DNA of 64,000 nt from an uncultured Thermodesulfobacteriota bacterium. Lineage in GTDB: Bacteria > Desulfobacterota > Anaeroferrophillalia > Anaeroferrophillales > Anaeroferrophillaceae. The stretch covers positions 7,943-71,942 of the forward strand of contig CAYZIS010000001.1 of assembly GCA_964478545.1 (NCBI GenBank), written 5' to 3'. Positions within the stretch are counted from its first letter, which is position 1. Every line of letters begins with the position of its first letter. Both the position numbers and the translations under genes were made by a program. Shown piece by piece: positions 6,358-58,942 of the stretch. Below the pieces are notes generated by a model. It was not told the origin of the DNA. It worked only from the letters and a program-made list of their open reading frames with translations, and ran no database searches.

Positions 6358-6575
6358 GGATAAATCCTTTCGATTTTAGCTGCTAGCTATCAGCTGTTAG
6401 CTTTTAGTAAAACCTCAACTTTCTGACTTTCATGGCCAAAAATACATTACAGGATGTTCGGGCCTGGCTCATAGCCGTGTCCGCCGTGCCTGCCGGCAGG
6501 CACGGCGACAGGCAGGGCTGTTTTTAGAGCAACTCAGAAAGTTAAGCTTGTGCTTTCAGCTTTATACCTTTAGCC
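6358..6575 (+). repeat. Family-1 composite repeat inserted between porA and porB. TTAGCTN heptads 6361-6395, core 6450-6526, ACCTT-type heptads 6545-6575.
   Basis: Contains a perfect palindrome 'GTGCCTGCCGGCAGGCAC' followed by a T-run. Occupies the entire 218-bp porA-porB gap. Confidence 0.8.
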
Positions 6576-18130: not shown

Positions 18131-20038
18131 CTATTTTTTCCCCTTGCCATACCCCAACGGCACCACTGCTTCAGCAATTTCATCAAGCACCGTCGGATCG
18201 TCAATAGTTGAAGGCATGCGGAAATCCTCGTTATCGGCAATTTTACGCATGGTACCCCGCAGGATCTTACCGGAACGGGTTTTGGGCAAGCGATTTACCA
18301 CCGTCGCCTGGCGGAAAGAGGCAACCGCCCCGATCTGATCCCGGACCATTTGGACCAGCTCTTTAGCAATTTCACCAGGATCTTTCGTCACCCCGGTTTT
18401 CAAAACAAAGAATCCCAGGGGCACTTGGCCTTTCAGATCATCGGCAACTCCCAAGACCGCGCATTCAGCCACATCCGGATGGGTGGCGACAATCTCTTCC
18501 ATGCCGCCAGTGGAAAGACGGTGACCGGCCACATTGATAACATCATCCACCCGCCCCATGATATAGACATAGCCCTCATCATCAATATAACCACCATCAC
18601 CGGTGAAATAGTAGCCGGGATACATACTGACATATGATTCCTTATAACGCTGATCCTGCTCCCACAACGTCGGCAAACAACCAGGAGGCAGCGGCAACTT
18701 AATGGTAACGATACCTTCAGTATTGGGACCCAACTCCTTGCCTTCATTGTCAAGAATCTGGACATTGAAACCTGGCACCCGCTTGGTGGGTGATCCGGGT
18801 TTAATCGGAAGTTTTTCAATCCCCAGGCAGTTGCCGGCAATAGCCCAGGCGGTTTCCGTCTGCCACCAGTGATCAATGACCGGTTTATGCAGCAGGTCGG
18901 AAGCCCAGTGATAGGTATCGGGATCGAGACGCTCACCGGCCAGAAAGAGATATTTAAAACAGGAGAGGTCATACTTTTTCAGCAGCTTACCCTGAGGATC
19001 CTCCTTTTTGATCGCCCGAAAAGCCGTCGGCGCCGTAAACAGCACCTTGACCTTATGCTCGGAAATCACCCGCCAGAAAGCGCCGGCATCCGGGGTACCC
19101 ACAGGTTTCCCCTCATAGACGATAGTGGTACAGCCCAGCATCAAAGGCGCGTAGACAATGTAGGAATGGCCGACAACCCAGCCGACATCGGATGCCGCCC
19201 AGTATACATCCCCGGGCTGCACATCGTAGACATTACGCATACTCCATTTCATGGCCACCGCGTGCCCACCGTTATCGCGCACCACCCCTTTGGGAATCCC
19301 GGTAGTTCCGGAAGTATAGAGAATATACAGCGGATCGGTGGCGGCCACGGTAACACACTCAGTCGGTTCGGCCTGGGCCATGGCATCATCCCAATCCAGA
19401 TCCCGACCAGCAATCAGTTCGGACTGCACCTGCGGCCGTTGAAGAATGATACATTTATCCGGTTTTACCTCGGCCAGCTCAATAGCTTTGTCCAGCAGCG
19501 GTTTATAGGCAATAACCTTGGTCGCCCCTTCCAATCCGCAGGAAGCGGAGATAATCAGTTTCGGCTTGGCGTCATTGATCCGGATTGCCAGTTCATTGGG
19601 GGCAAAACCACCGAAAACCACCGAATGGACGACACCAATGCGGGCGCAAGCCAACATGGCCACCAGAGTTTCGGAGATCATTGGCATATAAATAATCGCC
19701 GTATCTCCTTTTTTCAGCCCCTGCGCTCGAATAACCCCGGCAAAACGGGAAACCTGATCCTGCAATTCGCGATAGGTAATTTTTTTAACTGTATTGGTCT
19801 GGGGACTGTCGTAAATAATAGCGACCTGATCAGCCCGGCCGTTTTCCACATGATAATCAATGGCATTGTAACAGCTATTCAATTCCCCGCCGGTAAACCA
19901 ACGGTAAAAATAGGGTTTGCCATAGTCATCCAGCACCTTATCCCATTTTTTCACCCACTGGACATCCTCGGCAGCCTCAGCCCAAAAACCATCCGGATCT
20001 TCAATGGAACGACGATACGCCTCATCATATTTACCCAT
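18131..20038 (-). CDS. AMP-forming acyl-CoA synthetase (Acs/PrpE family; possibly propionate--CoA ligase)
   Basis: 'YTSGTTGIPKGV' AMP-binding motif. Acs-like N-terminus 'DPDGFWAEAAEDVQWVKKWDKV'. 635 aa. Confidence 0.85.
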   Translation of the reverse strand: MGKYDEAYRRSIEDPDGFWAEAAEDVQWVKKWDKVLDDYGKPYFYRWFTGGELNSCYNAIDYHVENGRADQVAIIYDSPQTNTVKKITYRELQDQVSRFAGVIRAQGLKKGDTAIIYMPMISETLVAMLACARIGVVHSVVFGGFAPNELAIRINDAKPKLIISASCGLEGATKVIAYKPLLDKAIELAEVKPDKCIILQRPQVQSELIAGRDLDWDDAMAQAEPTECVTVAATDPLYILYTSGTTGIPKGVVRDNGGHAVAMKWSMRNVYDVQPGDVYWAASDVGWVVGHSYIVYAPLMLGCTTIVYEGKPVGTPDAGAFWRVISEHKVKVLFTAPTAFRAIKKEDPQGKLLKKYDLSCFKYLFLAGERLDPDTYHWASDLLHKPVIDHWWQTETAWAIAGNCLGIEKLPIKPGSPTKRVPGFNVQILDNEGKELGPNTEGIVTIKLPLPPGCLPTLWEQDQRYKESYVSMYPGYYFTGDGGYIDDEGYVYIMGRVDDVINVAGHRLSTGGMEEIVATHPDVAECAVLGVADDLKGQVPLGFFVLKTGVTKDPGEIAKELVQMVRDQIGAVASFRQATVVNRLPKTRSGKILRGTMRKIADNEDFRMPSTIDDPTVLDEIAEAVVPLGYGKGKK

Positions 20039-20787: not shown

Positions 20788-22767
20788 ATGGCTGATGCAA
20801 CAGAGCTGAAAAGTGTATATCCAGTACCGGAAGAATTCCGCAAAAAAGCGTACTTCAAAAGCCGGGAAAAATACCAAAAACTATATGATGAATCCATCAA
20901 CGATAGCGATGGTTTCTGGGGACGGATCGCCGAAGAATATGTCACGTGGTTTAAAAAATGGGACAAGGTACAAGACTGGAAATTCAGCAAGGATGAAGTC
21001 TACCTGAAATGGTTCTTGGGTGGCAAGCTGAACGTTTCCTACAACTGCCTTGACCGTCACCTGGAAAAACGCGGCGATCAGGTAGCCCTGATCTTTGAAG
21101 GCAACGAACCAACTGTCGACAAAAAATTCACCTATAAAAAACTGCATGAGCTGGTCTGCAAATTCGCTAACGTGATGAAAGCACACGGCGTCAAAAGAGG
21201 TGACCGGGTAACCATCTACCTGCCAATGATTCCGGAACTGGCCATTACCATGCTTGCCTGCACCCGAATCGGAGCCATGCACTCCATCGTCTTTGGTGGT
21301 TTTTCCTCTGAGGCCCTTAAAGACCGGATCCAGGACTGCGATTCTAATTTTCTCATCTCCTGCAACGCCTACTATCGCGGCGCCAAGGTCATCAACCAGA
21401 AAACCAATGTTGATGCCGCAGTAGCCCAGTGCCCGACCATCAAAAATACGATTATCGTCAAGCACGAAGCCGAAGTCGATGTAGCCATGAAAGCAGGCTA
21501 TGACCTCTCTTATGAAGATGAGATGGCCAAGGTTGATGCCAACTGCGAACCGGAATGGATGGATTCCGAAGATCCGCTCTTTCTGCTCTACACCTCCGGC
21601 TCTACCGGTAAACCCAAAGGGGTTATCCATACCACCGGCGGCTACCTGCTCTATACTGCATTCACTCACAAGAATATTTTTGACTACCATGATGGCGATA
21701 TCTTTTTCTGCGCTGCCGACATCGGCTGGGTCACCGGGCATTCTTACATCGTTTATGGTCCCCTGTGCAACGGCGCCACCTCAGTCATGTTTGAAGGGGT
21801 ACCCAACTATCCGGATGCCGGCCGCTACTGGGACATTATCGGCAAGCACAAAATCAACACCCTCTATACCGCTCCGACCGCCATCCGCGCCATCGCCGGC
21901 CAGGGCGACAGTTTTGTCACCAGCCGTCTTGACAAGCTTGACAGCCTGACCCTGCTGGGCACAGTCGGTGAGCCCATCAACCCGGAAGCCTGGAAATGGT
22001 ATTATGAGCTGCCCGGCCGCAGCAAATGCCCCATCGTTGATACCTGGTGGCAGACGGAAAACGGCGGCATCCTGATCACCGGCCTGCCAGGCGCCATTGA
22101 CATGAAACCCGGCTATGCCACCACCCCGTTCTTCGGAGTTGATCCGATTATTGTTGAACCGACCAGCGGTGAAGAGATTAAAGGTCAGGCTGAAGGCGCC
22201 CTGTGCATCAAACGCCCATGGCCTGGATTGATGCGCGGCGTCTACGGTGATCCCGATCGTTTCAGGACGACCTATTTTGTTCAGTATGACGGTTATTATT
22301 TCAGCGGTGACGGTGCCATGCGCGATAAAAATGGCGATTACCGGCTTATGGGCCGCATCGATGATGTTATCAATATCTCCGGTCACCGGATGGGTACCGC
22401 TGAAGTAGAAAGTGCCCTGGTGCTGAATAAGAACGTTGCTGAAGCCGCGGTTGTCGGCATGCCCCATGAGATCAAAGGACAGGGCATTTATGCCTATGTA
22501 ACCTTGAATGCCGGTGTTGAAGGCACTGACGCCCTCAAGAAAGAACTGGTCGCTTTGGTCCGTAAGGAGATTGGGCCCATCGCCAGTCCGGATAAGATCC
22601 AGTGGGCCCCGGCACTACCGAAGACCCGTTCCGGGAAAATCATGCGCCGCATCCTGCGTAAGATTGCCGCCAATGAAGTTGATATGAAAGGTTTAGGCGA
22701 CACCTCAACCCTGGCTGATCCTTCAGTGGTCCAAGGCTTGATTGATACCCGGGAAAATCGCGGTTAG
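20788..22767 (+). CDS. acs: acetyl-CoA synthetase
   Basis: '[23 protein letters not shown]', '[12 protein letters not shown]', '[17 protein letters not shown]'. GAAGGAGG RBS. Confidence 0.92.
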
Positions 22768-22880: not shown

Positions 22881-22938
22881 TTCTTTCAGTTCAAAAAAAT
22901 CTTGTATGTGATTGCAAGACCTGACCCCCAGGCAAAAA

Positions 22939-23955
22939 ATGATCAACCGCATTGGTTTTACCTCCAGCATTCCGGTGGAAATTATTTATGCTGCCGGCCT
23001 CATACCCTGTGACTTAAACAACCTTTTTATTGGCAATCCGCATCCAGGATTGCTCATTGAGCAATCAGAGGAATCCGGTTTTCCCGCCACCAGTTGTGCC
23101 TGGATCAAAGGAATATATTCCACCGTTAAGAAACACGGAATCAGGAAGGTGGTGGCGGTAGTCAGTGGTGACTGTAGCAGCACCCATGCCCTGGCTGAAG
23201 TGCTGGAATACGAAGGAGTGGAAATTATTCCTTTCGCCTTCCCGCTAAACCGCAGTCCGGGAAGCATGGAGCTTGCGCTGGAAGAATTTCGCCGCTATTT
23301 CAAAATTTCCCAGGACAGCGTTGCGGCCTGCAAACAAAATCTTGATGCCATCCGCCAACAGCTCGAGGAGTTGGACCGCCTGACCTGGGAAGAAGGACAG
23401 GTAAGCGGGGAGGAAAACCATCGATTTCTGGTTACAGCCAGTGATTTTGGCGGCAACCCCCAGACTTTCAGCCACGAACTCAATACATTTTTGGCGCTGG
23501 CCCGGAGACGGCAATCAAAACCACCATCTCTCCGCCTGGGGGTCATCGGCGTCCCGCCGATTATCAGTAACTTTTATCCCATCATTGAAGAACTCGGGGC
23601 TGAAGTAGTGTTCAACGAGGTACAAAGACAATTCAGTATGCCCGGTGCCAGGAATCGCGACCTGGCCAGCCAGTATCTTGCCTATACTTACCCCTATGAT
23701 GCCAAAGGCCGGATTGCCGACATTAAAGCGGAGATCAGCCGACGGCAACTGGATGGTATCATCCACTATGTCCAGTCTTTCTGTTTCCGCCAGATTGAAG
23801 ATATTATCATTAAAAAAGAGCTTTCGGTTCCGGTACTAACCATCGAAGGCGACCGGCCGGCCCCGGTGGACGGCCGCACCATCACCCGGCTGGAAACCTT
23901 CATTGAAATGCTCCTGGGCCGTCAGAAAACGCCACATCCCCGTCCACTTTTCTGA
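22939..23955 (+). CDS. 2-hydroxyacyl-CoA dehydratase / benzoyl-CoA reductase subunit family protein (HgdB/BcrC-like)
   Basis: Family-level similarity judged by eye only; Cys-containing 'SGDCSSTHAL' and 'YVQSFCFRQIEDI'. Confidence 0.45.
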   Translation: MINRIGFTSSIPVEIIYAAGLIPCDLNNLFIGNPHPGLLIEQSEESGFPATSCAWIKGIYSTVKKHGIRKVVAVVSGDCSSTHALAEVLEYEGVEIIPFAFPLNRSPGSMELALEEFRRYFKISQDSVAACKQNLDAIRQQLEELDRLTWEEGQVSGEENHRFLVTASDFGGNPQTFSHELNTFLALARRRQSKPPSLRLGVIGVPPIISNFYPIIEELGAEVVFNEVQRQFSMPGARNRDLASQYLAYTYPYDAKGRIADIKAEISRRQLDGIIHYVQSFCFRQIEDIIIKKELSVPVLTIEGDRPAPVDGRTITRLETFIEMLLGRQKTPHPRPLF

Positions 23956-29626: not shown

Positions 29627-29702
29627 TGGCTCCCCGGGTAGGATTCGAACCTACGACCTAGTGGTTAACAGCCACCCGCTCTGCCAGTTGAGCTACCGAG
29701 GA
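29627..29702 (-). tRNA. tRNA-Asn (anticodon GTT), 76 nt with encoded CCA
   Basis: Cloverleaf folded manually from the reverse complement: acceptor stem TCCTCGG/CCGGGGA, D-arm GCTC/GAGC, anticodon loop CTGTTAA, T-arm GTAGG/CCTAC (T-loop TTCGAAT), CCA end. Confidence 0.9.
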
Positions 29703-46063: not shown

Positions 46064-46140
46064 ACCTATTTCCTTTTTATCTTACCTTAATAACTAATCT
46101 ATGCAGTTTTACACAATGAGATTAAAAAAAGAATCTAAAC

Positions 46141-46203
46141 CAGGACATGAAGGTCATAAAAATTTTTAGGCAAACTCTTTATGCTTCATGCTCTTCATGG
46201 TAA
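46141..46203. mobile_element. gene-less miniature derived from the GxxExxY cassette ends (GGACATGAAG...CTTCATGCTCTTCATGGTA)
   Basis: 14-mer CTTCATGCTCTTCA + TGGTA is shared with 16430-16456. GGACATGAAG is shared with 16043-16052. Confidence 0.55.
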
Positions 46204-46349
46204 TAACATTTTCAACGTGTTTTACTCAGTACTGTCCGGTATGCTTTTTGCGTCGTGTTCAATATCGGCAACCGGTGCTGTTTCAAGCGCGACATCGTGA
46301 GATGCCGTTGCTTTTCCCGGCGATTGGAGCGTGAAAGTTGCCATGTTTG

Positions 46350-46470
46350 AGCCCTACAGGGCGAGTTTGGCAACTTTAGCGCAATGAGCCGCTGGAAAAG
46401 CAGGCAATCGAGCGCCAAAAAGCGCTGAAATCAGCTCCGGTTGACAGTATGCAACTTTCTAACCAGACAC
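46350..46470 (+). repeat. Family-4 conserved element, copy B
   Basis: 'AACTTTAGCGCAATGAGCCGCTGGAAAAGCAGGCAATCGAGCGCCAAAAAGCGCTGAAATCAGCTCCGGTTGACAGTATGCAACTTTCTAACC' against 9961-10050. Confidence 0.5.
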
Positions 46471-46566
46471 TGCTGTGTTTTACTATGGCATAAACTTTTT
46501 TGCTTGCACCTACGCCGAGTGAGGTTACAATCATGACTATCCCGATCATTATTTTCTCATTATGAA

Positions 46567-46612
46567 AAAAGGTGACTATTATTCCTGCAACAGGAATCAC
46601 AGTCACCTTTTG
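46567..46612 (-). terminator. rho-independent terminator of the por/nuo operon (AAAAGGTGACTATTATTCCTG-CAA-CAGGAATCACAGTCACCTTTT)
   Basis: 19/21-bp stem with a U-tract on the minus strand, 26 bp after the stop of the NuoG-like gene. Confidence 0.75.
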
Positions 46613-46637
46613 AAACTAAAAACGGTTGAACAATCAC

Positions 46638-47366
46638 CTATTTTTTCATTGCCCGGCAGTCCCGGCACAAATCAAAAAAATCCTCCGGCAAGTCATACTT
46701 CTTCTGGATAAAACGCAGTTGAAAATCCGGAGCAAATTCCATCCCACATTCGCTGCAAGTCCGCAGTTTCAACACCCGGGACCAACGGTCGATGATCTTC
46801 TCCTCACCATTCTCCTGAATCTGAATGGCGTTGGTGGGGCAGACATAGACACAAGCACCGCAGCCGATGCACGATTCTGCCTCTTCTCCAAAGGGAGGAA
46901 CCACCACCCGTTCAGTTCCGCGCTGGGCAAAGGTAATGGCATTGGCACCAACAATTTCCCGGCAGACACGTTCACACAGACCACAGAGAATACAATCATC
47001 ATAATGAAGCTCGAAAGGGGAGCTTTCAATACCATATTCAACCGCTAGCTGATTCAACTTCGGAGAAGTATTGCAACGGGCCAACAACAGCTTCAGCACC
47101 ATCCGCCTTACCTTCCTGACTTTCTCCGTGTCCGTCTCCACCTCAATGGGATCAGTTATCGGATAATTACAGGAGGTAGTCAATGTCCGGCGGCCGTTTT
47201 TAATAACTTCAACCTGGCATAGGCGACATGCCCCGTAGGGTTCGAGAAGTTCATGATAACATAAAGTAGGGATAACAACTTGATTTGCTTTCGCTGCTTC
47301 CAGGATTGTCGTCCCTTCTTCCACCTGAACTTTTTTTCCATTTATCGCTATTTCTACCATCATCAT
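46638..47366 (-). CDS. NuoG/HoxU-like N-terminal iron-sulfur protein ([2Fe-2S] + His-ligated [4Fe-4S] + [4Fe-4S]), 242 aa
   Basis: 'CYHELLEPYGACRLCQVEV', 'CILCGLCERVCRE', 'CIGCGACVYVCP'. Confidence 0.8.
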   Translation of the reverse strand: MMMVEIAINGKKVQVEEGTTILEAAKANQVVIPTLCYHELLEPYGACRLCQVEVIKNGRRTLTTSCNYPITDPIEVETDTEKVRKVRRMVLKLLLARCNTSPKLNQLAVEYGIESSPFELHYDDCILCGLCERVCREIVGANAITFAQRGTERVVVPPFGEEAESCIGCGACVYVCPTNAIQIQENGEEKIIDRWSRVLKLRTCSECGMEFAPDFQLRFIQKKYDLPEDFFDLCRDCRAMKK

Positions 47367-47398
47367 TCCCCTTTGCTATGGATGGGATACAAAACTCA

Positions 47399-49249
47399 TC
47401 AGATAATTTTCACCGCATCAAACTTACAGGCATCGTAACACATCCCGCATTTAATACACTTCTCCTGATCAATTTCGTGAGGCTCTTTTTTCTTTCCATG
47501 AGCTGCACCAACCGGGCATACCCGGGCACACTTATGGCAACCGGTACAAGCGTCAGGATCAATCTCAAAATGAATCAAATCTTTACAGACGCCAGCTGGA
47601 CATTTTTTGTCAATGATGTGAGCAAGATATTCATCGCGGAAATAACGCAGGGTACTCAAAACTGGATTCGGCGCCGTTTTTCCCAAGCCACACATGGAAC
47701 CTTCTTGGACCACAAAGGCCAGTTCCTCCAGCAATTCAAGGTCACTCAACTCCCCTTCACCCCGGGTTATCCTATCAAGAATCTCATACATCCTTAGGAT
47801 GCCTTCGCGGCAGGTGGTACATTTACCACAGGATTCACCCTTGAGGAAATTGAGAAAATATTTGGCCACGTCCACCATGCAGGTGCGATCGTCCATGACG
47901 ATCATACCACCAGAACCCATCATGGAGCCCACCTTGCCAAGCTCATCAAAATCAACTTGGATGTCAAGATGCTCTTCCGGAATACAACCACCGGAAGGTC
48001 CGCCGGTCTGGACTGCTTTAAAGGCTCGACCACCGGGAATGCCACCGCCAATATCAAAAATAATCTCACGCAGTGAGATACCCATTGGAACTTCAACCAG
48101 CCCGCTATTATTAACCTTTCCCACTAGAGAAAAGATTTTTGTTCCAGGACTTCCTTTGGTTCCAATGCTCCGGAACCATTTAGCCCCTTTATCAATAATC
48201 ACTGGGATATTGGCCCAGGTTTCCACATTATTCAATACCGTCGGTTTCCCCCATAGGCCGCTTTCGGCCATGTGAATATGCTTTGCCCGCGGTTCACCGA
48301 CCTGGCCCTCAATGGAGGCAATCAGGGCACTGGACTCACCGCAGACGAAAGCCCCACCACCACGACTAATCTTAATATCAAAATTGAAACCACTGCCAAG
48401 AATATTCTGTCCCAACAAACCCATTTTCCGGGCGGCATCTATGGCTATGGTCAAATTGGCAACTGCCAGTGGATATTCATGGCGCACATACACATAGCCA
48501 TCCGTAGCATCGACAGCATAGGCACCAAGCAGCATCCCCTCAATAACTGCATGGGGGTTTCCTTCGAGAAGGCTGCGATCCATGTAGGCCCCAGGATCGC
48601 CCTCGTCAGCGTTGCAAATCACATATTTAACCTCGGATTCAACATTCCTGGTAGATTCCCATTTCCTACCAGTGGGAAACCCACCACCGCCACGGCCTCG
48701 CAGGCCCGAGCTTATCACTTCATCCAAAACCCCAGCCGCGGTCATGTCGGTTAAGGCTTTTGCCAGCGCCTGATAACCACCTATGGCCAGATAGTCATCG
48801 ATGCTTGTCGGATCGATCAAGCCATTACTGCCAAAAATAATCCGTTTCTGCAATTTATAAAACGGGACATCCTTCTCCAGAGAAATCTTCTCTTCGCTAC
48901 CCGGCAAAGCATAGAGCAACGACTCAATAACTTTCCCCTTCTGCACCGTCTTGGCAATAATTTCAGGAACGTCCTCAACCTTCACTTTATTATAGAACAC
49001 CCCCTGGGGATTAATAACTACCAGCGGACCCCGTTCACAAAAGCCATGACAACCGGTTGCTTTGACCTCAACTTGGTCAAGACCCTGCTTATCCAATTCC
49101 TGCTGCATGGCATCCACCACATTGGAGCAGCCATGGGCTTGACAGCCGGTACCAGCACAGATGGTAATTACTGTTCGTTGGGGATCCCGGGCTGCCACAC
49201 ATTCCTGGCGATAGGCTTCCAGCCCCTGAGCTGATTGTATTCTTTTCAT
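47399..49249 (-). CDS. NuoF/HndC-like NAD(P)H-binding flavoprotein with N-terminal thioredoxin-like [2Fe-2S] and C-terminal 2x[4Fe-4S] domains
   Basis: 'GRGGGGFPTGRKW' (FMN/NADH site). 'ESCGKCTTCREG' [4Fe-4S]. C-terminal 'CTGCHKCARVCP...CIKCGMCYDACK'. Confidence 0.88.
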   Translation of the reverse strand: MKRIQSAQGLEAYRQECVAARDPQRTVITICAGTGCQAHGCSNVVDAMQQELDKQGLDQVEVKATGCHGFCERGPLVVINPQGVFYNKVKVEDVPEIIAKTVQKGKVIESLLYALPGSEEKISLEKDVPFYKLQKRIIFGSNGLIDPTSIDDYLAIGGYQALAKALTDMTAAGVLDEVISSGLRGRGGGGFPTGRKWESTRNVESEVKYVICNADEGDPGAYMDRSLLEGNPHAVIEGMLLGAYAVDATDGYVYVRHEYPLAVANLTIAIDAARKMGLLGQNILGSGFNFDIKISRGGGAFVCGESSALIASIEGQVGEPRAKHIHMAESGLWGKPTVLNNVETWANIPVIIDKGAKWFRSIGTKGSPGTKIFSLVGKVNNSGLVEVPMGISLREIIFDIGGGIPGGRAFKAVQTGGPSGGCIPEEHLDIQVDFDELGKVGSMMGSGGMIVMDDRTCMVDVAKYFLNFLKGESCGKCTTCREGILRMYEILDRITRGEGELSDLELLEELAFVVQEGSMCGLGKTAPNPVLSTLRYFRDEYLAHIIDKKCPAGVCKDLIHFEIDPDACTGCHKCARVCPVGAAHGKKKEPHEIDQEKCIKCGMCYDACKFDAVKII

Positions 49250-49281
49250 GGGAAATATCCTTTTTCAGTTAGCGCAGAACA

Positions 49282-49731
49282 TTAACGGTAATTCTCCATC
49301 AATTTTTTCACCTGACCTGGAGTCATATCACCATGATACTCCTGATCAGTCACAACCACCGGTCCAAGGGCACAAGCTCCCAGGCAGTTAACCGTCTCCA
49401 AACTAAATTTCTGATCGGAGCTCGTTTCACCACTGGCAATCCCCAGCTGCCGCTCCAACTCATCAAGAATCCGGTCAGAACCACGAACATGGCAGGCAGT
49501 TCCCACGCAGACACTAATAATATGTTCACCTTTCGGTTCCAGGCTGAAAGCCTTGAAAAAGGTCGCTATCCGGTAGACACGGGTCAGTGGAATTTCAAGA
49601 GCAGCAGCCAATCCCCGCAAATCTTCTTCCGGCAGATAGCGCTTGGCACTCTGAATATCCTGCAGCATAGCGATGATCTGTGACGGATCAGATCCATACT
49701 TGACAATAATATCCTTGACAGTCAGTTCCAT
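49282..49731 (-). CDS. NuoE/HoxE-like [2Fe-2S] thioredoxin-like subunit
   Basis: 'ISVCVGTACHVRGS', 'CLGACALGP'. Confidence 0.85.
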   Translation of the reverse strand: MELTVKDIIVKYGSDPSQIIAMLQDIQSAKRYLPEEDLRGLAAALEIPLTRVYRIATFFKAFSLEPKGEHIISVCVGTACHVRGSDRILDELERQLGIASGETSSDQKFSLETVNCLGACALGPVVVTDQEYHGDMTPGQVKKLMENYR

Positions 49732-49734
49732 AGC

Positions 49735-50670
49735 CTAGCCCTCACTCATTTCTATTTTTTTCAACAGCCGCTCATAATTAGCATCAACATACTGCTGAAT
49801 AAATTCAATACTTTTCTCTTTTAGATGACGAAAACGACCCTGAGGTTTAAGGTAATCTATGACCGGTCGATGATGTTTGTATGCGACTGTCATTTTATAT
49901 TGACCGTCCACCACCTCATAGAGGGGAAATACTTTTGTTTCAACCGCCAAACGACCAATGGATAATGCCAAATTAGGAGCCAAACGCCAACCGGTGGGGC
50001 AAGGTGTCAGCACATGGAGATAAGCCGGTCCCTTAACATCTGCTGCTTTTCGCACTTTTTCCATCAAATCAAAGGGATAGCTGGGACTGGCCGTCGCCAC
50101 ATAAGGAATATCATGGGCAACAGCAATTTCGGCCATATTCTTTTTCATCGTCACCTGGCCAATACTTTCTTTACCGGCAGGGGAAGTTGTCGTAGAAGCC
50201 CCATAAGGGGTGGCACTTGAACGCTGTATTCCAGTATTCATATAAGCTTCATTATCATAGCAGATATAGGTAAAATCATGCCCACGCTCCAAAGCTCCGG
50301 AAAGTGCCTGCAGGCCGATATCGACGGTCCCGCCATCACCCGCCTGAGCAATAATTTTAATCTCCCGGTCTACCGGATACTTCCCCTTTTTCTTCAGAAT
50401 TTTGATCCCGGATTCTATCCCGGAAGCAACCGCGGCAGCATTTTCAAAGGCCACGTGGATCCAGGGAACTTTCCAGGCTGTATGGGGGTATGAAGAAGTA
50501 ACGATCTCCAAACAACCGGTAGCATTGGCAATAATAAAATCATGACCCAGGGTTTTAGCTACCAGGCGAGCAGCCAGGAGTTCGGCACAACCCTGACAGG
50601 CCCGATGTCCAGGGGCCAGGGATTCCCGCTGCGGTGCCAGTTTAGCGGCATATACATTGAAGGCATCCAT
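49735..50670 (-). CDS. porB: 2-oxoacid:ferredoxin oxidoreductase beta subunit, locus 2
   Basis: '[10 protein letters not shown]', '[16 protein letters not shown]', '[18 protein letters not shown]'. Confidence 0.9.
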
Positions 50671-51848
50671 TATTCCCTCACTCCTATCATTTTATATTCG
50701 TGAACTTCTTGCTCAGCTTCCATCTTTTCAGCCAGGTTTACCATATCCATAAAATCCTGGATGGTCACATCCCGACCACCAAGACCGGCGATGAAACTGG
50801 CGACATAGGGTCTGTCCTCAGTGGAATAAAGGGCAGAGCGAATCTCGCCACCCACCGGGCCTCCCGTGCCACCAAAAGATACAGCCCGGTCAATCACCGC
50901 CAGGGTTTTGATGCCTTTTACCATCTCCCGCAATTCCTGTACCGGGAATGGCCGCCAAAGACGCAAACGGAGAAGTCCAACCTTTTTACCCTGCTCATCT
51001 TTCATAATATCAATGGCTTCCATAGCTGTCTCACCAATGCTACCCATGGTCAGCAGCACAGTCTCTGCATCTTCCGTCCGGTAGGATTCAATCACCTTGT
51101 AATAGCGGCCAAAACGATCGCCAAAATCCTTAAATACTTCTTTGATGACCTCTTTTGATTCTATGAGAGCCACATCCTGGGCTTTTTTCGCCTCAAAATA
51201 AATTTCAGGAATTCCCACTATCCCCATACTGACCGGTTTATCGGGATTAAGTTGAATAAGGGGATCGTAGGTTGGCAAAAACTGGTCAACCTCTTCCTGG
51301 CTGAGAAACTCGTGCGGCTCAATCACATGACTGAGAGTAAAACCATCAATGTTCACACTGATGGGCAACATCACCCGATGATCTTCCGCTATTTTGAATG
51401 ATTGCAGAGTCAGGTCAAAAGCTTCCTGGCCATTTTCGGCAAACATGGCAATCCAGCCGGTATCCCTGACGCTCATCAGATCGCTATGATCATTCCAGAT
51501 ACTGATAGGGCCGGACAATGCCCGATTGGCCAATGTCATCACGATAGGCAATCTCAATGCCGGGATGATAAAAAGTATTTCATTCATCAAGGCCAGGCCC
51601 TGGGAACTGGTTGCCGTATAGGTCCGGGCACCGGCGGCTGAAGTTCCGGCACAAACACTCATAGCTGAATGTTCCGATTCCACCGGAATAAACTCGGCAT
51701 TCAAATCACCATCAGCCACCAATTCTGATAAATGCTCCACTATGTGGGTCTGTGGAGTAATCGGATAAGCGGCAATGGCATCAACATCCGCCAGTTTCAC
51801 CGCCTCACTGATTGCCAGCGAGACTTCTATCCCTATTTTTTTTGCCAT
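50670..51848 (-). CDS. porA: 2-oxoacid:ferredoxin oxidoreductase alpha subunit, locus 2
   Basis: '[15 protein letters not shown]'. Start 'MAKKIGIEV' overlaps the porD stop (TGATG). Its stop overlaps the porB start. Confidence 0.9.
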
Positions 51849-52141
51849 CACTTCTCCTCCTCTACCATGCTGATGCAACCAGTCCAGCACTCGGTGGCAC
51901 AAATCCCACAACCTTTACAGTGATCATAATCAAAGTCATAAGTGCCATCCGCAGCCAAATTGATGGCACCATCCGGACAAGACAGATAGCAGATCCCGCA
52001 CTTGATGCATTTGCTCTTATCGATAATTGGTTTTTGTGACCGCCAGTCACCGGTGCGATACTCCGCAGAACAACCGGGATTGGTAACCATAAAAGCAAGA
52101 CCAAACTCTTTCCAGGTCATCTCACTAAAGTTCTTAGCCAT
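51848..52141 (-). CDS. porD: 2-oxoacid:ferredoxin oxidoreductase delta subunit (2x[4Fe-4S] ferredoxin), locus 2
   Basis: 'CIKCGICYLSCPDGAI...CKGCGICATEC'. Confidence 0.88.
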   Translation of the reverse strand: MAKNFSEMTWKEFGLAFMVTNPGCSAEYRTGDWRSQKPIIDKSKCIKCGICYLSCPDGAINLAADGTYDFDYDHCKGCGICATECWTGCISMVEEEK

Positions 52142-52143
52142 TC

Positions 52144-52701
52144 TTATGACTCCTTTCCCGCCACTACCGTTTCTTTATATGCCCGTTTCATGGCCTTAAT
52201 ATTACGAGCCGCAATCCGGCCAAAGCGTTTTTCCAGTGGAGCAACCAGGGAATCTATCGAAATCACTTCTTTCCCTTTCACCAAAGCCCCCAACATGGTG
52301 GTATTGGTAATCGGCAATCCCAGTTCTTCCATGGCAATATGGGTTGCATCCACCTTGGCAATTGCGGTTTTGAAACCAAACTCCTGACGCAGCTCGTTAA
52401 TGGATTTACCGCTGTTAATCACCAGAATCCCGTCTTCCTTTAACCCGTCTTCCACGTCAACAATTTTCATCACCGATGGATCAAGGACAACCACAATATC
52501 CGGAGCATAGACTTTTGTCCGGTTCCGAATTTTGGTGTCGCTGACCCGGGCAAAAGCAATGACCGGTGCCCCCCGTCTTTCCGGGCCAAAACTCGGGAAG
52601 GCCTGGGCATATTTTCCTTCGCTAATGGCAGCTATAGCAAGCATTTCTGCAGAGGTTACCCCCCCCTGACCACCTCTTCCGTGAATCCTGACTTCAATCA
52701 T
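52144..52701 (-). CDS. porG: 2-oxoacid:ferredoxin oxidoreductase gamma subunit, locus 2
   Basis: 'MIEVRIHGRGGQGGVTSAEML...FPSFGPERRGAP'. Confidence 0.88.
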   Translation of the reverse strand: MIEVRIHGRGGQGGVTSAEMLAIAAISEGKYAQAFPSFGPERRGAPVIAFARVSDTKIRNRTKVYAPDIVVVLDPSVMKIVDVEDGLKEDGILVINSGKSINELRQEFGFKTAIAKVDATHIAMEELGLPITNTTMLGALVKGKEVISIDSLVAPLEKRFGRIAARNIKAMKRAYKETVVAGKES

Positions 52702-52768
52702 GAATATTCTCCTTCATCCCGGAATCCAGAACTAATAATTAATTTTCCTGGTACAAGCAACACCATCT

Positions 52769-53371
52769 TTATAATTTACATCGACCATTGATCGATTTTT
52801 CAATGGTTACCGGATCCATGTATTCAAAATCAGCCCCCACCGGCAAACCACATGCCGGCCGGCTTATATGGATGTTGAGTGGTTTGAGCAGTGCAGCAAT
52901 ATACATGGCAGTCACATTACCTTCAACCGTCAAATTAGTTGAAATGATTACCTCCTGGATCCGTTTGCGAACAACAAGATCCTTCAATCGGTTCAAGCGC
53001 AGGTCTTCAGGTCCCACCCCCTGTAACGGGGCCACTACCCCATGGAGGACAAAGTAATGACCTTTAAAAGCTCCCGATTTTTCAATCGCCGTCACATCTG
53101 CAGGAAATTCAACTACACACAACTGCTGGGCATCCCTAGAGGAATCAGAACATAAAGGACAGGGATCAACCTCAGTTAAATTCTGACAATTAGAACACAA
53201 TTGCAGGCGGGAGGTAACTTCATGAATAGCCTGCGACAAACGCACCGCCTCAGGAGGCGACATGCGGACAATGTGAAAAGCCAGGCGGTCTGCGGTTTTC
53301 CGACCCACCCCGGGCAATTTCATCAACTGTTCCACCAGCTTCTTGAGCGGTTCCGGATATTTATGCATCAC
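52769..53371 (-). CDS. recR: recombination protein RecR
   Basis: 'LPGVGRKTADRLAFHI' HhH. C4 zinc finger 'CSNCQNLTEVDPCPLC'. Toprim domain. Confidence 0.92.
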   Translation of the reverse strand: MMHKYPEPLKKLVEQLMKLPGVGRKTADRLAFHIVRMSPPEAVRLSQAIHEVTSRLQLCSNCQNLTEVDPCPLCSDSSRDAQQLCVVEFPADVTAIEKSGAFKGHYFVLHGVVAPLQGVGPEDLRLNRLKDLVVRKRIQEVIISTNLTVEGNVTAMYIAALLKPLNIHISRPACGLPVGADFEYMDPVTIEKSINGRCKL

Positions 53372-53649: not shown

Positions 53650-54048
53650 TTATTTTTGTGACAACTCGGTCAAAACACCCTTGGAACTTTTGGGGTGAAT
53701 AAACGCAACCTTCGCCTCATGGGCTCCCAATCGGGGAGATTCATCAATCATACGAGCCCCGTGTGCTTTCATGTTTTGGATTTCTGCTTCAATATCATCA
53801 GTAGCATAGCAGATATGATGAATACCTTCACCTTTTTTTTCTAAATATTTTGCCACCGGAGAATCCTCGCTGGTGGGCATCACCAGCTCAATATTTGTTT
53901 CTCCAATTTTAAAAAAAGCAACTTTGACCTTTTGATTCTCAACCTCGTCAACTCCCTGTAATTCCATCCCCAATACATCACGATAAAATTTTGAGGTTTC
54001 ATCAAGATCATGAACTGCAATACCAATATGATCAATTTTCTTCAGCAT
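53650..54048 (-). CDS. mce: methylmalonyl-CoA epimerase (glyoxalase/VOC fold)
   Basis: 'IDHIGIAVHDLD', 'GIHHICYATDDI'. Genomic context with mutase/MeaB. Confidence 0.85.
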   Translation of the reverse strand: MLKKIDHIGIAVHDLDETSKFYRDVLGMELQGVDEVENQKVKVAFFKIGETNIELVMPTSEDSPVAKYLEKKGEGIHHICYATDDIEAEIQNMKAHGARMIDESPRLGAHEAKVAFIHPKSSKGVLTELSQK

Positions 54049-54063
54049 TAGCTCCTCCAGTCG

Positions 54064-54999
54064 TCAGCCAATTATTTTGACGCCCATTTCCTTAAACAAT
54101 TTTTCAGCCCCTTCCAACGGAGTTATCTCTTTTTGATAAATATCTTTCACCACTTGTTCAAAGTCGGGATAAGCATTTGCCAACTCAACAATCCCATCCA
54201 TCAGATAAGTACATAATTCCTGTCTGACATTTGATTTAAATTTTTCCTGATCCAGACCTTTACCATGAACATACTCCCGGTGCCGGTAAATACCGGCCAG
54301 CAAATCGGCAATTCCCACATCATCCCTGGCAACCGTCGAGAAAATATCAGGCTTCCAATCCCCGGTAGACATATCAAGCATCACCCGAAGTTCGTTTACC
54401 AGTTTCGCTGCTCCTTCCCGATCAGCCTTGTTAACCGCGAAAACATCAGCTATTTCCAGCACCCCGGCCTTGGCAATCTGAACGGCATCCCCAAGTCCGG
54501 GAACCATCACCACAACCGTGGTATGGGCAATCTTGACAATATCGACCTCATCCTGACCAACGCCTACGGTTTCAACAATTATCACATCCTTGCCGGCGGC
54601 ATCAAGCAAGTGAATAACATCAACAGTGGTCTTGGCCAGCCCCCCCATATGGCTGCGAGTCGCCATGCTGCGAATAAATACCCCATCATCCAAAGCATGC
54701 TGCTGCATGCGAATTCGATCCCCAAGAATTGCGCCGCCGGAAAAAGGACTGGAGGGATCGACAGCAATAATGCCAACGGTCTTTCCCTGCTGTCGCAACA
54801 AAGCAATAAGTTTATCGGTCAGGGTACTTTTTCCGGCCCCGGGAGGCCCGGTAATACCAATGAGGTAAGCGTTGCCAGTTCGGGGAAAAATCGCTTTGAG
54901 CAATGCTTTCTTTCCGGGACGATCATTTTCAACTATGGTAATCGCTTTAGCCAACGATCTGACATTGCCACTCACCAATCCTTCAATAATATCAGTCAA
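54064..54999 (-). CDS. meaB: methylmalonyl-CoA mutase-associated GTPase MeaB/ArgK
   Basis: 'IGITGPPGAGKSTL', 'VDPSSPFSGGAILGDRIRM'. Confidence 0.9.
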   Translation of the reverse strand: MTDIIEGLVSGNVRSLAKAITIVENDRPGKKALLKAIFPRTGNAYLIGITGPPGAGKSTLTDKLIALLRQQGKTVGIIAVDPSSPFSGGAILGDRIRMQQHALDDGVFIRSMATRSHMGGLAKTTVDVIHLLDAAGKDVIIVETVGVGQDEVDIVKIAHTTVVVMVPGLGDAVQIAKAGVLEIADVFAVNKADREGAAKLVNELRVMLDMSTGDWKPDIFSTVARDDVGIADLLAGIYRHREYVHGKGLDQEKFKSNVRQELCTYLMDGIVELANAYPDFEQVVKDIYQKEITPLEGAEKLFKEMGVKIIG

Positions 55000-55215
55000 T
55001 CACTGCCTCTCTATTGGGAAATTTTACGATTTATTGCTGGCTTCGTAAAAACTCCATCTTCTTTGTTATACTGCCGCTCTAATTCGCCAGAGCAACAGGA
55101 AATATTTTGATAGTTAGCTCAAATGCGGATTACCTGAAATTCCGATATGAAGGTTTTTTGACCATGATTGTTCATGATCAAAACTTTTCAATCCTGATAT
55201 CGGAATGTCAGGGGT

Positions 55216-55626
55216 TTACTGATTCACCTGGTCGGTAATAAACTTTATGGTTTCATCAGTAGAAGATCCGGGCCGAAAGATCTCCTTGATACCAGCCTCT
55301 TTCAAACCGGCAATATCCCCATCAGGAATGATGCCGCCTCCAAAGACCAGGATATCCTCAGCACCTTTCTCCCTCAGCAATTTCACTACCTTGGGAAAAA
55401 GGTTATTATGGGCCCCTGAAAGACAGCTAAGCCCTACGGCATCTACGTCTTCCTGAATCGCCGTAGCCACAATCTGTTCGGGAGTCTGCCGAATCCCGGT
55501 ATATATAACCTCCATCCCGGCATCTCTCAACGCCCGGGCTACCACTCTGGCTCCCCGATCATGACCGTCCAAACCCGGTTTGCCAACTAGTACCTTTATC
55601 CTTTTAGCCATACCTCTTCCCTCCAT
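55216..55626 (-). CDS. methylmalonyl-CoA mutase small subunit (B12-binding domain)
   Basis: '[32 protein letters not shown]' (DxHxxG cobalamin motif). Confidence 0.9.
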
Positions 55627-55645
55627 ATTTTAACAAGCCGGAATA

Positions 55646-57313
55646 CTACTGTTCCTGATATTCACCAAATACCTGACGTAAAACACCACAAACTTCACCC
55701 AGGCTAGCATACAACTTCACCGCCACCAGAATGGGAATCATCAGGTTTCCTCCCTCTTCAGCAACGACTTTCAGTTCTTGTAAGACTTTATTCACCGCTT
55801 CATTATCCCGGCTTTCTTTCACCTGCGCCAGTTTCTGCCGTTGCTTCACTTCCATCTCTGCCTTGACCGTCAGTAGATTCTCCGGAGGTGCTTCTTCAAT
55901 GGTAAATTTATTCACCCCAACAATAATCTGTTCCTTTGCTTCCACTGCTTTTTGATAGGCGTAGGCACTGTCACCAATTTCATTCTGAATATACCCAGCT
56001 TCTATGGCTTTAACCACTCCACCCAGATCATCTATTTTCTTAATATAGGCCAGGGCCTGCTTTTCAATCTTACTGGTCAGGGATTCGACCAAATAAGAAC
56101 CGGCCAGGGGATCAACACTGTCGGCAACTCCGCTTTCATAGGCAATAACCTGCTGGGTCCGCAAAGCAATCCGCACCGAATCCTCGGTGGGCAGGCATAA
56201 CGCCTCATCACGGGAATTGGTATGCAGGGAATTCGTTCCTCCCAGAACAGCTGCCAGAGCCTGCATAGTTACCCTGATCACATTATTATCGGGTTGTTGG
56301 GCGGTCAGGGAACAACCGGCAGTCTGGGTATGGAAACGCAGCATCATCGACGCTGGTTTCTTGGCTCCGAACCGTTCTTTCATCAGCCGGGCCCAAAGAC
56401 GACGGGCAGCTCTGAACTTAGCAACTTCTTCCAGGAATGGGTTGTGAACATTGAAGAAAAAGGATAACCGTTTGGCAAATACATCTACATCCAACCCTGA
56501 TTTTATCGCCGCATCAACGTAAGCCAGACCATCCGCCAGGGTAAAAGCAACCTCCTGAACCGCAGTGGATCCAGCCTCACGAATATGATAGCCACTGATA
56601 CTGATGGTATTCCAGTTGGGCAGATTATCTTTGCAGAAAGCAAAAATATCAGTGATAATTTTCATGGACGGTGACGGAGGAAAAATATAGGTGCCCCGGG
56701 CAAAATATTCTTTCAGGACATCATTCTGAATAGTACCCCGCAGTTGCTCTGGTGCAACCCCCTGTTTTTCAGCCACAGCGACATACATGGCCAGCAGGAC
56801 AGCCGCCGGGGCATTGATGGTCATCGAGGTACTTACTTTATCCAACGAAATTCCGTCAAAGAGCATTTCCATATCAGCAAGGGTATCAATGGCAACCCCA
56901 ACCTTTCCTACCTCCCCTTCAGAAAGCCCAAAATCGGAATCATAACCAATCTGGGTCGGCAGATCAAAAGCTACACTTAAACCTGTCTGACCATTTTCCA
57001 GCAAATACTTATATCTTTTATTAGTTTCCTCTGCCGAGCCAAAACCGGCATACTGACGCATGGTCCAGAAACGAGCCCGATACATGGTCGGCTGAACCCC
57101 ACGGGTAAAAGGATAAACGCCCGGGAAACCGATATCTTCGGTATAATTTACCTGTTCCACATCTTCCGGGGTAAATAGGCGCTTCATTTCGATACCGGAG
57201 GTGGTCGCAAAATTTTCCCGACGTTCAGGAAAGCGGGCACAGGCCTTATCAACCAATTCCTGCCACTGCTGTTGGCGTTGCTGGAATGCTTGTTTATGCT
57301 CACTACAGGTCAT
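55646..57313 (-). CDS. methylmalonyl-CoA mutase large (catalytic TIM-barrel) subunit
   Basis: 'RMFAGFG...[34 protein letters not shown]'. 555 aa, split-type mutase. Confidence 0.9.
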
Positions 57314-57388
57314 GTTTCTACCCTCCTTCTGGATGATATCTGTTAACAGCCGGATCTAACTCTCCTGAAAATCCTCTGCCATAGCTTA

Positions 57389-58942
57389 TTACAGCGGAAT
57401 GTTACTATGTTTTTTATATGGTGTTTCCTGCTCTTTATCCTGGAGCATATCCAATGCCCGAATAATTTTTATCCGGGTCATTTCAGGTTTAATCACTTCA
57501 TCGACAAAACCGTAGGAGGCTGCCCGGTAGGGGTTGGCAAACTTCTGTCGATAATCATCCACCAGTTCCTGACGACGAGCGATGGGATCCTCGGCATTTT
57601 TAAGCTCTTTATTGAAAACAATATTAACCGCACCATCAGGACCCATTACTGAAAATTCCGCCGTAGGATAAGCAAAATGGATATCGGAACGAAGTTGCTT
57701 GGATGACATGGCACAGTAGGCTCCGCCATATGACTTACGAGTGGTAATGGTAATTTTGGGAACTGTGGACTCGGCATAGGCAAAAATTATTTTTGCCCCA
57801 TGACGAATGATGCCACCATATTCCTGGGCCGTACCCGGCAAGAAACCAGGCACATCCACAAATGTCAGGATAGGAATATTAAAACAGTCACAAAAGCGGA
57901 TGAAACGTGAACATTTATCAGATGCATTAATATCCAGACAACCAGCCATAAAATTAGGCTGGTTAGCGACAATCCCCACAGATTCACCATTAAACCGGGC
58001 GAAGCCAATTACCATATTCCGCGCGTACCGTGGCTGAACTTCAAAAAACTCATTATAATCTGCCACCCCTTTAATAATCTTCTTAATATCGTAGGGTCTC
58101 CGGGAATCAGCCGGCACCACTTCATTCAATTCAGGCAACACCTGCTCCACTTCGCCGTCATAGGGAAAGAGCGGAGCTTTTTCTCGATTGCTCTGCGGCA
58201 GATAACTCAATAATTTTTTTATCGTTTCTATGGTACCCTGATCATTTTTAGCGGCCAGGTGGGCAACACCACTAATCGACATATGGGTCGAGGCACCCCC
58301 TAACTTTTCCTGAGTTACCTCTTCGTTGGTTACCGTCTTAATCACATTTGGCCCGGTAATAAACATGTAGCTGGTTTTTTCCGTCATCACCACAAAATCC
58401 ATAATTGCCGGAGAATAGACGGCGCCACCGGCACAAGGCCCAAGAATCCCGGAAATCTGGGGAACAACCCCGGAATAAATGGTATTCCGGTAGAACAGTT
58501 CAGCATATCCTCCCAGGCTGGCAACCCCTTCGTGAATTCTGGCTCCACCGGAATCGTTGAACCCAACAAACGGAGCCCCGGCAGTTGCAGCCATATCCAG
58601 AACCTTGCAGATTTTCTGGGCATTGGTTTCACTTAAGGTCCCGCCAATGGCAGTAAAATCCTGGGCAAAAGCAAAAGTAAGACGACCATTTACTTTCCCG
58701 TATCCACTTACCAAGCCATCGCCAATGATAGTCTTTTTCTCCATGCCAAAATCTGTACAGCGATGGGTAATAAATTTATCGATTTCTTCAAAGGTTCCAG
58801 CATCGAAAAAATCCAGCATCCTTTCGCGAGCGGTCATTTTTCCAGCATCGTGCTGCTTTTGAATGCGGGCTTCTCCGCCACCAAGTTCTGCTGACTGATT
58901 CATTTCATCCAACCGGGCAATGGCTTTTTCGTATTGCGTCAT
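57389..58942 (-). CDS. methylmalonyl-CoA carboxyltransferase / propionyl-CoA carboxylase beta subunit
   Basis: 'GGARIHEGVASLGGYAE'. Carboxyltransferase N and C domains. 517 aa. Confidence 0.9.
   Translation of the reverse strand: MTQYEKAIARLDEMNQSAELGGGEARIQKQHDAGKMTARERMLDFFDAGTFEEIDKFITHRCTDFGMEKKTIIGDGLVSGYGKVNGRLTFAFAQDFTAIGGTLSETNAQKICKVLDMAATAGAPFVGFNDSGGARIHEGVASLGGYAELFYRNTIYSGVVPQISGILGPCAGGAVYSPAIMDFVVMTEKTSYMFITGPNVIKTVTNEEVTQEKLGGASTHMSISGVAHLAAKNDQGTIETIKKLLSYLPQSNREKAPLFPYDGEVEQVLPELNEVVPADSRRPYDIKKIIKGVADYNEFFEVQPRYARNMVIGFARFNGESVGIVANQPNFMAGCLDINASDKCSRFIRFCDCFNIPILTFVDVPGFLPGTAQEYGGIIRHGAKIIFAYAESTVPKITITTRKSYGGAYCAMSSKQLRSDIHFAYPTAEFSVMGPDGAVNIVFNKELKNAEDPIARRQELVDDYRQKFANPYRAASYGFVDEVIKPEMTRIKIIRALDMLQDKEQETPYKKHSNIPL

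Follow-up and report, generated by a model that had tools for sequence, protein, structure and literature searches.

We analyzed a 64-kb stretch of DNA, here called the window, from an uncultured Thermodesulfobacteriota bacterium (contig CAYZIS010000001.1), in which the genes of a pyruvate:ferredoxin oxidoreductase (POR) lie next to genes for proteins resembling the NuoE, NuoF, and N-terminal NuoG subunits of complex I. In the list of open reading frames (ORFs), seven genes occupy positions 52701 to 46638 of the minus strand in the order porG-porD-porA-porB-bfuC-bfuB-bfuA. The same seven genes were found in independent gene calls on metagenome contigs with an identical BfuB. This arrangement is not new, since it was predicted and named “Por-Bfu (A-G)” by Schut et al. 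in 2022, as an uncharacterized Type 2 BfuABC member with four POR subunits (PMC9304861). In that paper, Por-Bfu is a hypothetical enzyme of seven subunits whose main hosts are Dehalococcoides and syntrophic Deltaproteobacteria. The features of the locus, in the direction of the genes, are as follows (aa, amino acids; nt, nucleotides; TPP, thiamine pyrophosphate; FMN, flavin mononucleotide).

52702 to 52768, minus strand: recR-porG spacer, 67 nt, holding the porG ribosome-binding site
52144 to 52701, minus strand: porG, gamma subunit, 185 aa (PF01558, E 1e-41), with the Shine-Dalgarno sequence GAAGGAG 7 nt upstream
51848 to 52141, minus strand: porD, delta subunit, 97 aa, 2x[4Fe-4S] (TIGR02179 PorD_KorD, 97 bits, cutoff 60)
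50670 to 51848, minus strand: porA, alpha subunit, 392 aa (POR_N and PFOR_II)
49735 to 50670, minus strand: porB, beta subunit, 311 aa, TPP and proximal [4Fe-4S] (TPP_enzyme_C)
49282 to 49731, minus strand: bfuC, NuoE/HydC-like, 149 aa (PF01257, E 9e-50)
47399 to 49249, minus strand: bfuB, NuoF/HydB-like, 616 aa, with an FMN/NAD(H) site, clusters B1, B5, B3, and B4, and the B2/Zn site
46638 to 47366, minus strand: bfuA, NuoG-N/WorA-like, 242 aa (Fer2_4 and 2xFer4)
46567 to 46611, minus strand: intrinsic terminator, a hairpin with 21-nt arms and a T run

Layout and boundaries of the por-bfu cluster

From porG to bfuA, the junctions measure 2, −1, −1, 3, 32, and 32 nt, and a purine-rich Shine-Dalgarno motif precedes each of the seven starts. 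The porA start was taken as the ATG at 51848, which is preceded by GAGGAGGAG and overlaps the porD stop by 1 nt; a TTG at 51911 was discarded. Similarly, porB overlaps the porA stop by 1 nt. Translational coupling would fit this gene order, with its overlapping or 2- to 32-nt junctions.

The terminator begins 26 nt beyond the bfuA stop. Its inverted repeat (arms 46567 to 46587 and 46591 to 46611, 21 nt, 90% complementary) was missed by a simple consensus scan and was recovered by a repeat finder and by folding, which gave −29.4 kcal/mol (z = −5.3, with 0 of 200 shuffles as stable). The simple scan returned nothing convincing inside the seven-gene cluster. A sequence-only reading of the window had called the gene order, the tight junctions, and a single strong terminator, and all three were found in place. 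We infer that the seven genes are probably co-transcribed as one unit ending at the 46567 to 46611 terminator.

Upstream, recR (52769 to 53371) directly precedes porG in the same orientation, both in the window and in four Desulfobacterota loci of the comparison set described below (L001, L002, L003, and L028). Because no terminator was found in the 67-nt recR-porG spacer, recR might share the por-bfu transcript. Sigma-70-like promoter matches numbered 9, compared to 11.4 expected from shuffles, and none fell in this spacer. Downstream, the 574 nt between bfuA and the RNase PH gene (46064 to 46637) hold no convincing ORF and no Rfam match. The terminator lies inside this stretch, and the rph promoter is presumed to be there too.

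Bifurcating-type cofactor sites in BfuB and BfuC

BfuB opens with a thioredoxin-like 2Fe-2S domain (residues 23 to 100, a PF01257 match), continues with a core of Complex1_51K and NADH_4Fe-4S domains that includes a GRGGGGFPTG loop, and closes with 2xFer4 (residues 560 to 615). We assigned its ligands by mapping those of 7t2r_B through an alignment. The B5 ligands are C31, C36, C67, and C71, those of B1 are C474, C477, C480, and C520, and those of B3/B4 are C568/571/574/578 and C598/601/604/608. At the B2/Zn site, C438/C476/H525/C531/C536 of 7t2r_B align to C457/T495/H544/C550/C555 of BfuB. This is the Thr variant of the site, the one that FeFe, Nfn, and Wor enzymes use to bind Zn. In BfuC, the C1 [2Fe-2S] ligands are present as Cys 75, 80, 116, and 120.

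The top PDB matches to BfuB were the HydB of a [NiFe] hydrogenase (7t2r_B, E 2e-237) and WorB (9mqx_B, E 2e-235). Further matches were HydB from T. kivui (8a6t_B, E 1e-232), from A. woodii (7q4v_B), and from T. maritima, as well as NfnB, while plain NuoF proteins matched only at about E 1e-109 or weaker. Clusters B2 to B5 are missing from non-bifurcating homologs, and the His at the B2 site is found in all but 8 of 1,558 BfuB sequences (PMC9304861). Judged by alignment, none of the ligands that distinguish bifurcating NuoF and NuoE homologs from non-bifurcating ones is missing from BfuB and BfuC. The extra N-terminal [2Fe-2S] and C-terminal 2x[4Fe-4S] that had been claimed for the NuoF-like protein are borne out by its domains, its ligands, and its HydB and WorB matches.

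BfuA resembles the adaptor WorA

The closest match to BfuA was WorA (9mqx_A), both in sequence (E 1e-51, residues 4 to 238) and in the fold of its AlphaFold model (mean predicted local distance difference test score 79; E 9e-24, 42% identity). Across 32 aligned homologs, the cysteines of A1 [2Fe-2S] (36/47/50/66), of A2 and A4 [4Fe-4S] (125/128/131/135 and 166/169/172/176), and of a Cys4 zinc finger (C204/207/234/237) are invariant, and the last set aligns to the zinc-finger cysteines of WorA. At the place of A3, which is His ligated in HydA and NuoG, the BfuA segment has no ligand set and only one non-conserved Cys. We found neither an A5 cluster nor a catalytic domain in BfuA.

WorA serves as an adaptor through which a separate oxidoreductase is connected to BfuBC. 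Its Por-Bfu homolog has been described as keeping the zinc finger and missing the C-terminal adaptor helix (PMC12318220). The window BfuA agrees with that description, since its zinc finger is present and the protein ends 5 residues past C237, the last Cys. BfuA has no catalytic domain, and the module would therefore need an external electron donor.

The Por subunits

The four-subunit POR set is complete, with alpha, beta (TPP and [4Fe-4S]), gamma, and delta (2x[4Fe-4S]). PorB, with cluster cysteines 25, 28, 53, and 224, scored 430.8 bits against NF008819 (cutoff 405), which is 77 bits higher than against the Vor-beta model. PorG scored 228.4 bits against NF006321 (pyruvate ferredoxin oxidoreductase gamma; cutoff 225). 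PorB and PorG are thus above the NCBIfam equivalog cutoffs for pyruvate, and PorA and PorD are below them. The cluster cysteines of PorD are 45, 48, 51, and 55 and 75, 78, 81, and 85, and its top PDB match was 9bt4_G, the delta subunit of a pyruvate:ferredoxin oxidoreductase (PFOR), in an end-to-end alignment.

The second cluster motif of PorD ends in CATECWTGC (residues 81 to 89), the canonical form being “C..ECP.” We considered “CW” as a docking signature and rejected it, because about half of the PorDs at por-bfu loci carry this Trp and the others read CP, CL, or CV. An extra Cys four residues after this CW is present in the window and at loci L013 and L078.

Conservation of the gene order

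We scanned reference genomes, one per species, with a BfuA alignment, retained the best 80 of at least 600 stretches, and determined locus content by tblastn with the seven window proteins. The complete order porG-porD-porA-porB-bfuC-bfuB-bfuA, on one strand and with short gaps, was present at 19 of the 80 best loci, and 3 more had shortened versions of it. A comparison of the por-nuoEFG' arrangement between genomes had been proposed beforehand; it shows that the order recurs across phyla. The 19 genomes are labelled Thermodesulfobacteriota or Deltaproteobacteria, Dehalococcoidia or Chloroflexota, Myxococcota (metagenome-assembled genomes), Dethiobacter alkaliphilus, Syntrophus, and Syntrophobacterales. 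Where at least 5.4 kb of upstream sequence was available, a complete por set accompanied 18 of 31 zinc-finger-type BfuA loci. Loci with other BfuA types had no por (0 of 33).

Among the matches listed, none comes from the species of the window itself; the closest BfuA is 55% identical and the closest BfuB 68% identical to the window proteins. Window PorA and PorB share 54 to 69% identity with their counterparts at Por-Bfu loci of other phyla and only 45% with those of a paralogous 2-oxoacid:ferredoxin oxidoreductase (OFOR) 40 kb away, which argues that por and bfu are inherited together as a unit. In a rough neighbor-joining tree of 64 loci, the window BfuB falls among por-linked Desulfobacterota BfuBs, beside a por-linked Dehalococcoidia clade. 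In the published BfuB tree, the Por-Bfu subtype corresponds to clades 35, 44, or 45 (PMC9304861).

Other partners of bfuCBA were also seen. At L071 (5247 to 10708) and L073 (5189 to 10714), another type of OFOR lies directly upstream of bfuC-bfuB-bfuA, with a VorB-type alpha subunit (PRK07119, 532 bits versus a cutoff of 399) followed by beta and gamma, and its subunits are about 25 to 30% identical to the window Por. The Bfu module therefore appears to pair with 2-oxoacid oxidoreductases of at least two classes. In the portion of the 2022 paper's text that we consulted, the POR-type (“Por”) is the sole OFOR type mentioned (PMC9304861). At L034 (4605 to 12693), where BfuB is 64% identical, bfuC-B-A is followed by HdrC-like (Fer4_17), HdrB-like (CCG), and FAD/polyferredoxin genes, a partner that resembles the Bam/Hdr type more than POR. 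L025 has bfuCBA with no recognizable partner nearby.

A proposed Por-Bfu enzyme

The reading we favor, and consider probable, is that the seven genes encode one Por-Bfu enzyme, with PorGDAB docked on a BfuABC bifurcating module. It builds on cofactor sites, a gene order, a conserved cluster, and a terminator that are all directly observed. That the subunits form a complex and that the complex bifurcates electrons is what we would predict from the sequences and from characterized relatives. The sequence-only reading had likewise wired a ferredoxin-linked OFOR to a bifurcating module, and the predictions that follow from it hold at the sequence level in the BfuB ligands, the WorA-type BfuA, and the conserved order. 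Co-expression of the Dehalococcoides mccartyi cluster has been cited as support for a single enzyme (PMC9304861).

In such an enzyme, pyruvate would be decarboxylated with coenzyme A (CoA) at the TPP of PorA/B. Single electrons would pass from the PorB [4Fe-4S] through the two PorD [4Fe-4S] clusters to A4, A2, and A1 of BfuA, then to B1 of BfuB and the B1-FMN-C1 “flavobicluster,” identified as the bifurcation site by later cryo-electron microscopy work. By analogy with WorABCSL, HydABC, and NfnABC, every two pyruvate (four electrons) would reduce one NAD+ at the FMN, two electrons would exit via C1 of BfuC and B3/B4 of BfuB to ferredoxin, and neither acceptor would be reduced without the other. 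The same obligatory coupling, with neither NAD+ nor ferredoxin reduced alone, has been proposed for Por-Bfu by analogy with Wor-Bfu (PMC9304861). The reaction would be reversible, with acetyl-CoA, CO2, NADH, and reduced ferredoxin giving pyruvate.

Several points weigh against a single bifurcating enzyme. The pyruvate/acetyl-CoA couple, at about −500 mV (PMC9304861, Table 1), could reduce both acceptors directly (PMC9304861). Bifurcation is not thermodynamically required, since this couple does not lie between NAD and ferredoxin, and pyruvate synthesis from NADH and ferredoxin is uphill under standard conditions. The best family for PorA, PorA_Arch, was matched at 503 bits, under its cutoff of 550, and PorD scored 104 bits against the pyruvate equivalog model (cutoff 120). 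PorD also looks like an ordinary ferredoxin-reducing delta subunit, and no universal docking signature was found in it. The Bfu module appears promiscuous, because it stands alone at L025 and adjoins Hdr-like genes at L034. Neither the terminator searches nor the promoter scan marked a 5' boundary of the operon upstream of porG. Lastly, full-text literature searches for a purified Por-Bfu enzyme returned prediction only and no biochemical characterization; the same two papers (PMC9304861, PMC12318220) were all that came up for the Dehalococcoides genes and for por next to hydBC in syntrophs.

Alternative explanations

The alternative that survives best, although we think it unlikely, is that the cluster encodes two independent enzymes that share no more than a transcript. 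In that case, free ferredoxin would be reduced by an ordinary POR and then taken up by a free-standing BfuABC, which might act as a ferredoxin:NAD+ oxidoreductase or work with a partner encoded elsewhere. Such an arrangement would suit PorD, which is canonical in length and motifs and aligns over its whole length with the stand-alone PFOR delta 9bt4_G, and it would also suit the close relatives L025, L010, L019, and L020, which have bfuCBA and no adjacent por. However, BfuA keeps three clusters and a zinc-finger adaptor with no catalytic site of its own, an architecture that makes little sense without a docked donor. Colinearity is also strict across phyla, with short porB-bfuC gaps, and the cluster Por is an orthologous group of its own, closer to its counterparts in other phyla (54 to 69%) than to the paralog in the same genome (45%).

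If PorGDAB and BfuABC do form one complex, it could still be a simple pyruvate:NAD+ oxidoreductase or NADH-driven pyruvate synthase, with ferredoxin not obligatory and no bifurcation. Pyruvate, at the potential given above, can reduce NAD+ directly, and NAD-linked OFORs exist, e.g., phenylglyoxylate dehydrogenase PadEFGHI, whose subunit families were secondary matches here. We nevertheless regard this as improbable, as the window BfuB retains H544, the B5 domain, and the B3/B4 domain, which interacts with ferredoxin, all of which non-bifurcating NuoF homologs lack. In addition, the analogous low-potential Wor-Bfu requires both acceptors (PMC9304861).

A different question is whether the substrate is another 2-oxoacid, such as 2-oxoisovalerate or 2-oxobutyrate, which would be compatible with a Por-Bfu enzyme as we propose it. 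PorA and PorD fall under the pyruvate equivalog cutoffs, Vor families were second best, and VorB-type OFOR genes directly precede bfuCBA at L071 and L073. Against these stand the scores of PorB (430.8 versus 405) and PorG (228.4 versus 225) and the 77 bits by which PorB exceeds its Vor-beta score, and we give a substrate other than pyruvate only a slight chance.

It is very improbable that the Nuo-like genes serve a hydrogenase or formate dehydrogenase whose own genes lie outside the por-bfu cluster, a possibility raised along with the sequence-only reading: BfuB and BfuC do closely resemble the hydrogenase subunits HydB and HydC, and JGI labels BfuA homologs “bidirectional [NiFe] hydrogenase diaphorase subunit,” but no hydrogenase or formate dehydrogenase gene is present in the 64-kb window, the terminator directly follows bfuA, BfuA lacks both the A3 of NiFe-Bfu and the H-cluster domain of FeFe-Bfu, and the por linkage is kept in 19 genomes. 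We rejected respiratory complex I NuoEFG, given NuoF-family scores under the cutoff for both of the top-scoring models (471 versus 559 and 389 versus 749), the extra Fe-S domains of the NuoF-like protein, a NuoG-like protein of only 242 aa, and no other nuo genes in the window.

Genomic context and a second OFOR

Immediately upstream of recR and the por-bfu genes, positions 53650 to 58942 (minus strand) hold a methylmalonyl-CoA block that encodes an epimerase, a MeaB GTPase, a split mutase (a B12-binding protein of 136 aa and a catalytic protein of 555 aa), and an MmdA-type carboxyltransferase. These neighbors suggest a propionate-linked role. We considered them as conserved por-bfu neighbors and rejected this, as recR was the sole conserved upstream gene at the four Desulfobacterota loci. 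The argument from metabolic context is weak, since the methylmalonyl-CoA neighbors are not conserved in other por-bfu genomes.

The remaining genes of the window belong to housekeeping functions, histidine biosynthesis, acyl-CoA ligase, and the methylmalonyl-CoA pathway. Homologs of the window's Rho come from metagenome-assembled genomes of uncultured Deltaproteobacteria or Thermodesulfobacteriota, which places the host in this group, and the identity to Desulfarculus baarsii Rho is about 79%. Divergent acetyl-CoA-synthetase-like AMP-forming ligases of 635 and 659 aa lie at 18131 to 20038 (minus strand) and 20788 to 22767 (plus strand), followed by a gene at 22912 to 23955 resembling the D component of 2-hydroxyglutaryl-CoA dehydratase. 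Rfam and tRNA scans found no RNA gene in or near the por-bfu cluster, and a tRNA-Asn(GTT) at 29627 to 29702 (minus strand) was the sole RNA gene detected in the window.

The other OFOR locus spans 5452 to 9948 on the minus strand. It consists of a porG-like gene (9948 to 9358), a gene for a GltD/NfnB-like protein of 568 aa, a porA-like gene (7745 to 6576), and a vorB/porB-like gene (6357 to 5452). The 568-aa ORF (9452 to 7746) contains Fer4_20, an FAD/NAD(P)-binding domain, and a C-terminal PorD-like 2x[4Fe-4S] domain, and belongs to family PRK12771. Its true start is probably downstream of the listed TTG, because this TTG overlaps porG. From its domains, this locus seems to encode an OFOR coupled directly to a pyridine-nucleotide flavoprotein. 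The claim that the window holds two differently coupled OFORs has therefore held up, the GltD-like FAD/NAD(P) protein being fused here to a PorD-like domain.

Meaning of the locus

By its sequence, the window contains a further example of Por-Bfu, well bounded, with every ligand intact, and from an uncultured Thermodesulfobacteriota lineage. If the Por-Bfu prediction is true, NADH and ferredoxin would each receive half of the electrons from pyruvate, which are otherwise all assigned to ferredoxin. This changed electron accounting would concern syntrophs, organohalide respirers, and sulfate reducers, among other anaerobes. Por-Bfu is among the Bfu subtypes whose need for bifurcation is a thermodynamic puzzle, and the question that the window poses is the one already contained in the 2022 and 2025 papers (PMC9304861, PMC12318220).

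We tentatively raise the possibility, which we consider doubtful, that Por-Bfu here serves catabolic pyruvate oxidation for the upstream methylmalonyl-CoA (propionate) pathway. It would yield one NADH and one reduced ferredoxin per two pyruvate, alongside the second, NAD(P)H-linked OFOR with its GltD-like delta fusion. The role proposed for Por-Bfu in the literature is that of a gluconeogenic pyruvate synthase, and a catabolic role would be the opposite of this. The cell would then have two differently poised 2-oxoacid/pyridine-nucleotide couples, with their OFORs 40 kb apart.

Comparison with known systems

Complex I NuoEFG shares with the window proteins the FMN/NADH site, the N3-type [4Fe-4S], the NuoE [2Fe-2S], and the N-terminal NuoG clusters. 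In contrast to BfuB, its NuoF has no N-terminal 2Fe-2S, no C-terminal 2x[4Fe-4S], and no His/Cys site; its NuoG has a His-ligated N5 and a large C-terminal domain, and complex I does not use ferredoxin. The PFOR of Methanosarcina acetivorans (9BT4) matches the Por part in its alpha, beta, gamma, and delta subunits, its TPP site, and its three [4Fe-4S] clusters. It differs in that the window por genes share a probable operon with bfuCBA, so that the presumed acceptor is BfuA rather than free ferredoxin.

The HydABC [FeFe] and HydABCSL [NiFe] hydrogenases (7P5H, 8A6T, 7Q4V, and 7T2R) have the same BfuBC core with identical cofactor ligands, whereas the window BfuA stops after the ferredoxin-like domain and has no H-cluster domain, no His-ligated A3, and no A5. 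A nearer relative is WorABCSL from Acetomicrobium mobile (9MQX; PMC12318220). Over its whole length, BfuA shares 42% identity with WorA, along with the cluster set (again without A3) and the Cys4 zinc finger; BfuB matches WorB, and both systems use a low-potential third substrate. Unlike WorABCSL, the window has a TPP-dependent POR as the donor module instead of WorSL, with no WorS homolog, and its BfuA is missing the C-terminal adaptor helix by which the WorS nanowire is recruited.

Closest of all is Por-Bfu itself. The hosts given for it are Dehalococcoidia and “syntrophic Proteobacteria,” and the host of the window is an uncultured Thermodesulfobacteriota bacterium; we saw no structural difference between the window cluster and Por-Bfu. 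The window cluster adjoins recR and the methylmalonyl-CoA pathway genes rather than lying between tRNA genes. Like Por-Bfu, it joins four POR genes to bfuC, bfuB, and bfuA in one co-oriented cluster, and its BfuA has A1, A2, and A4 only, with the zinc finger and without the C-terminal helix. Its BfuB also has the Thr/His pattern at the B2 site that is seen in the “Dm Por” sequence of the PMC9304861 supplement.

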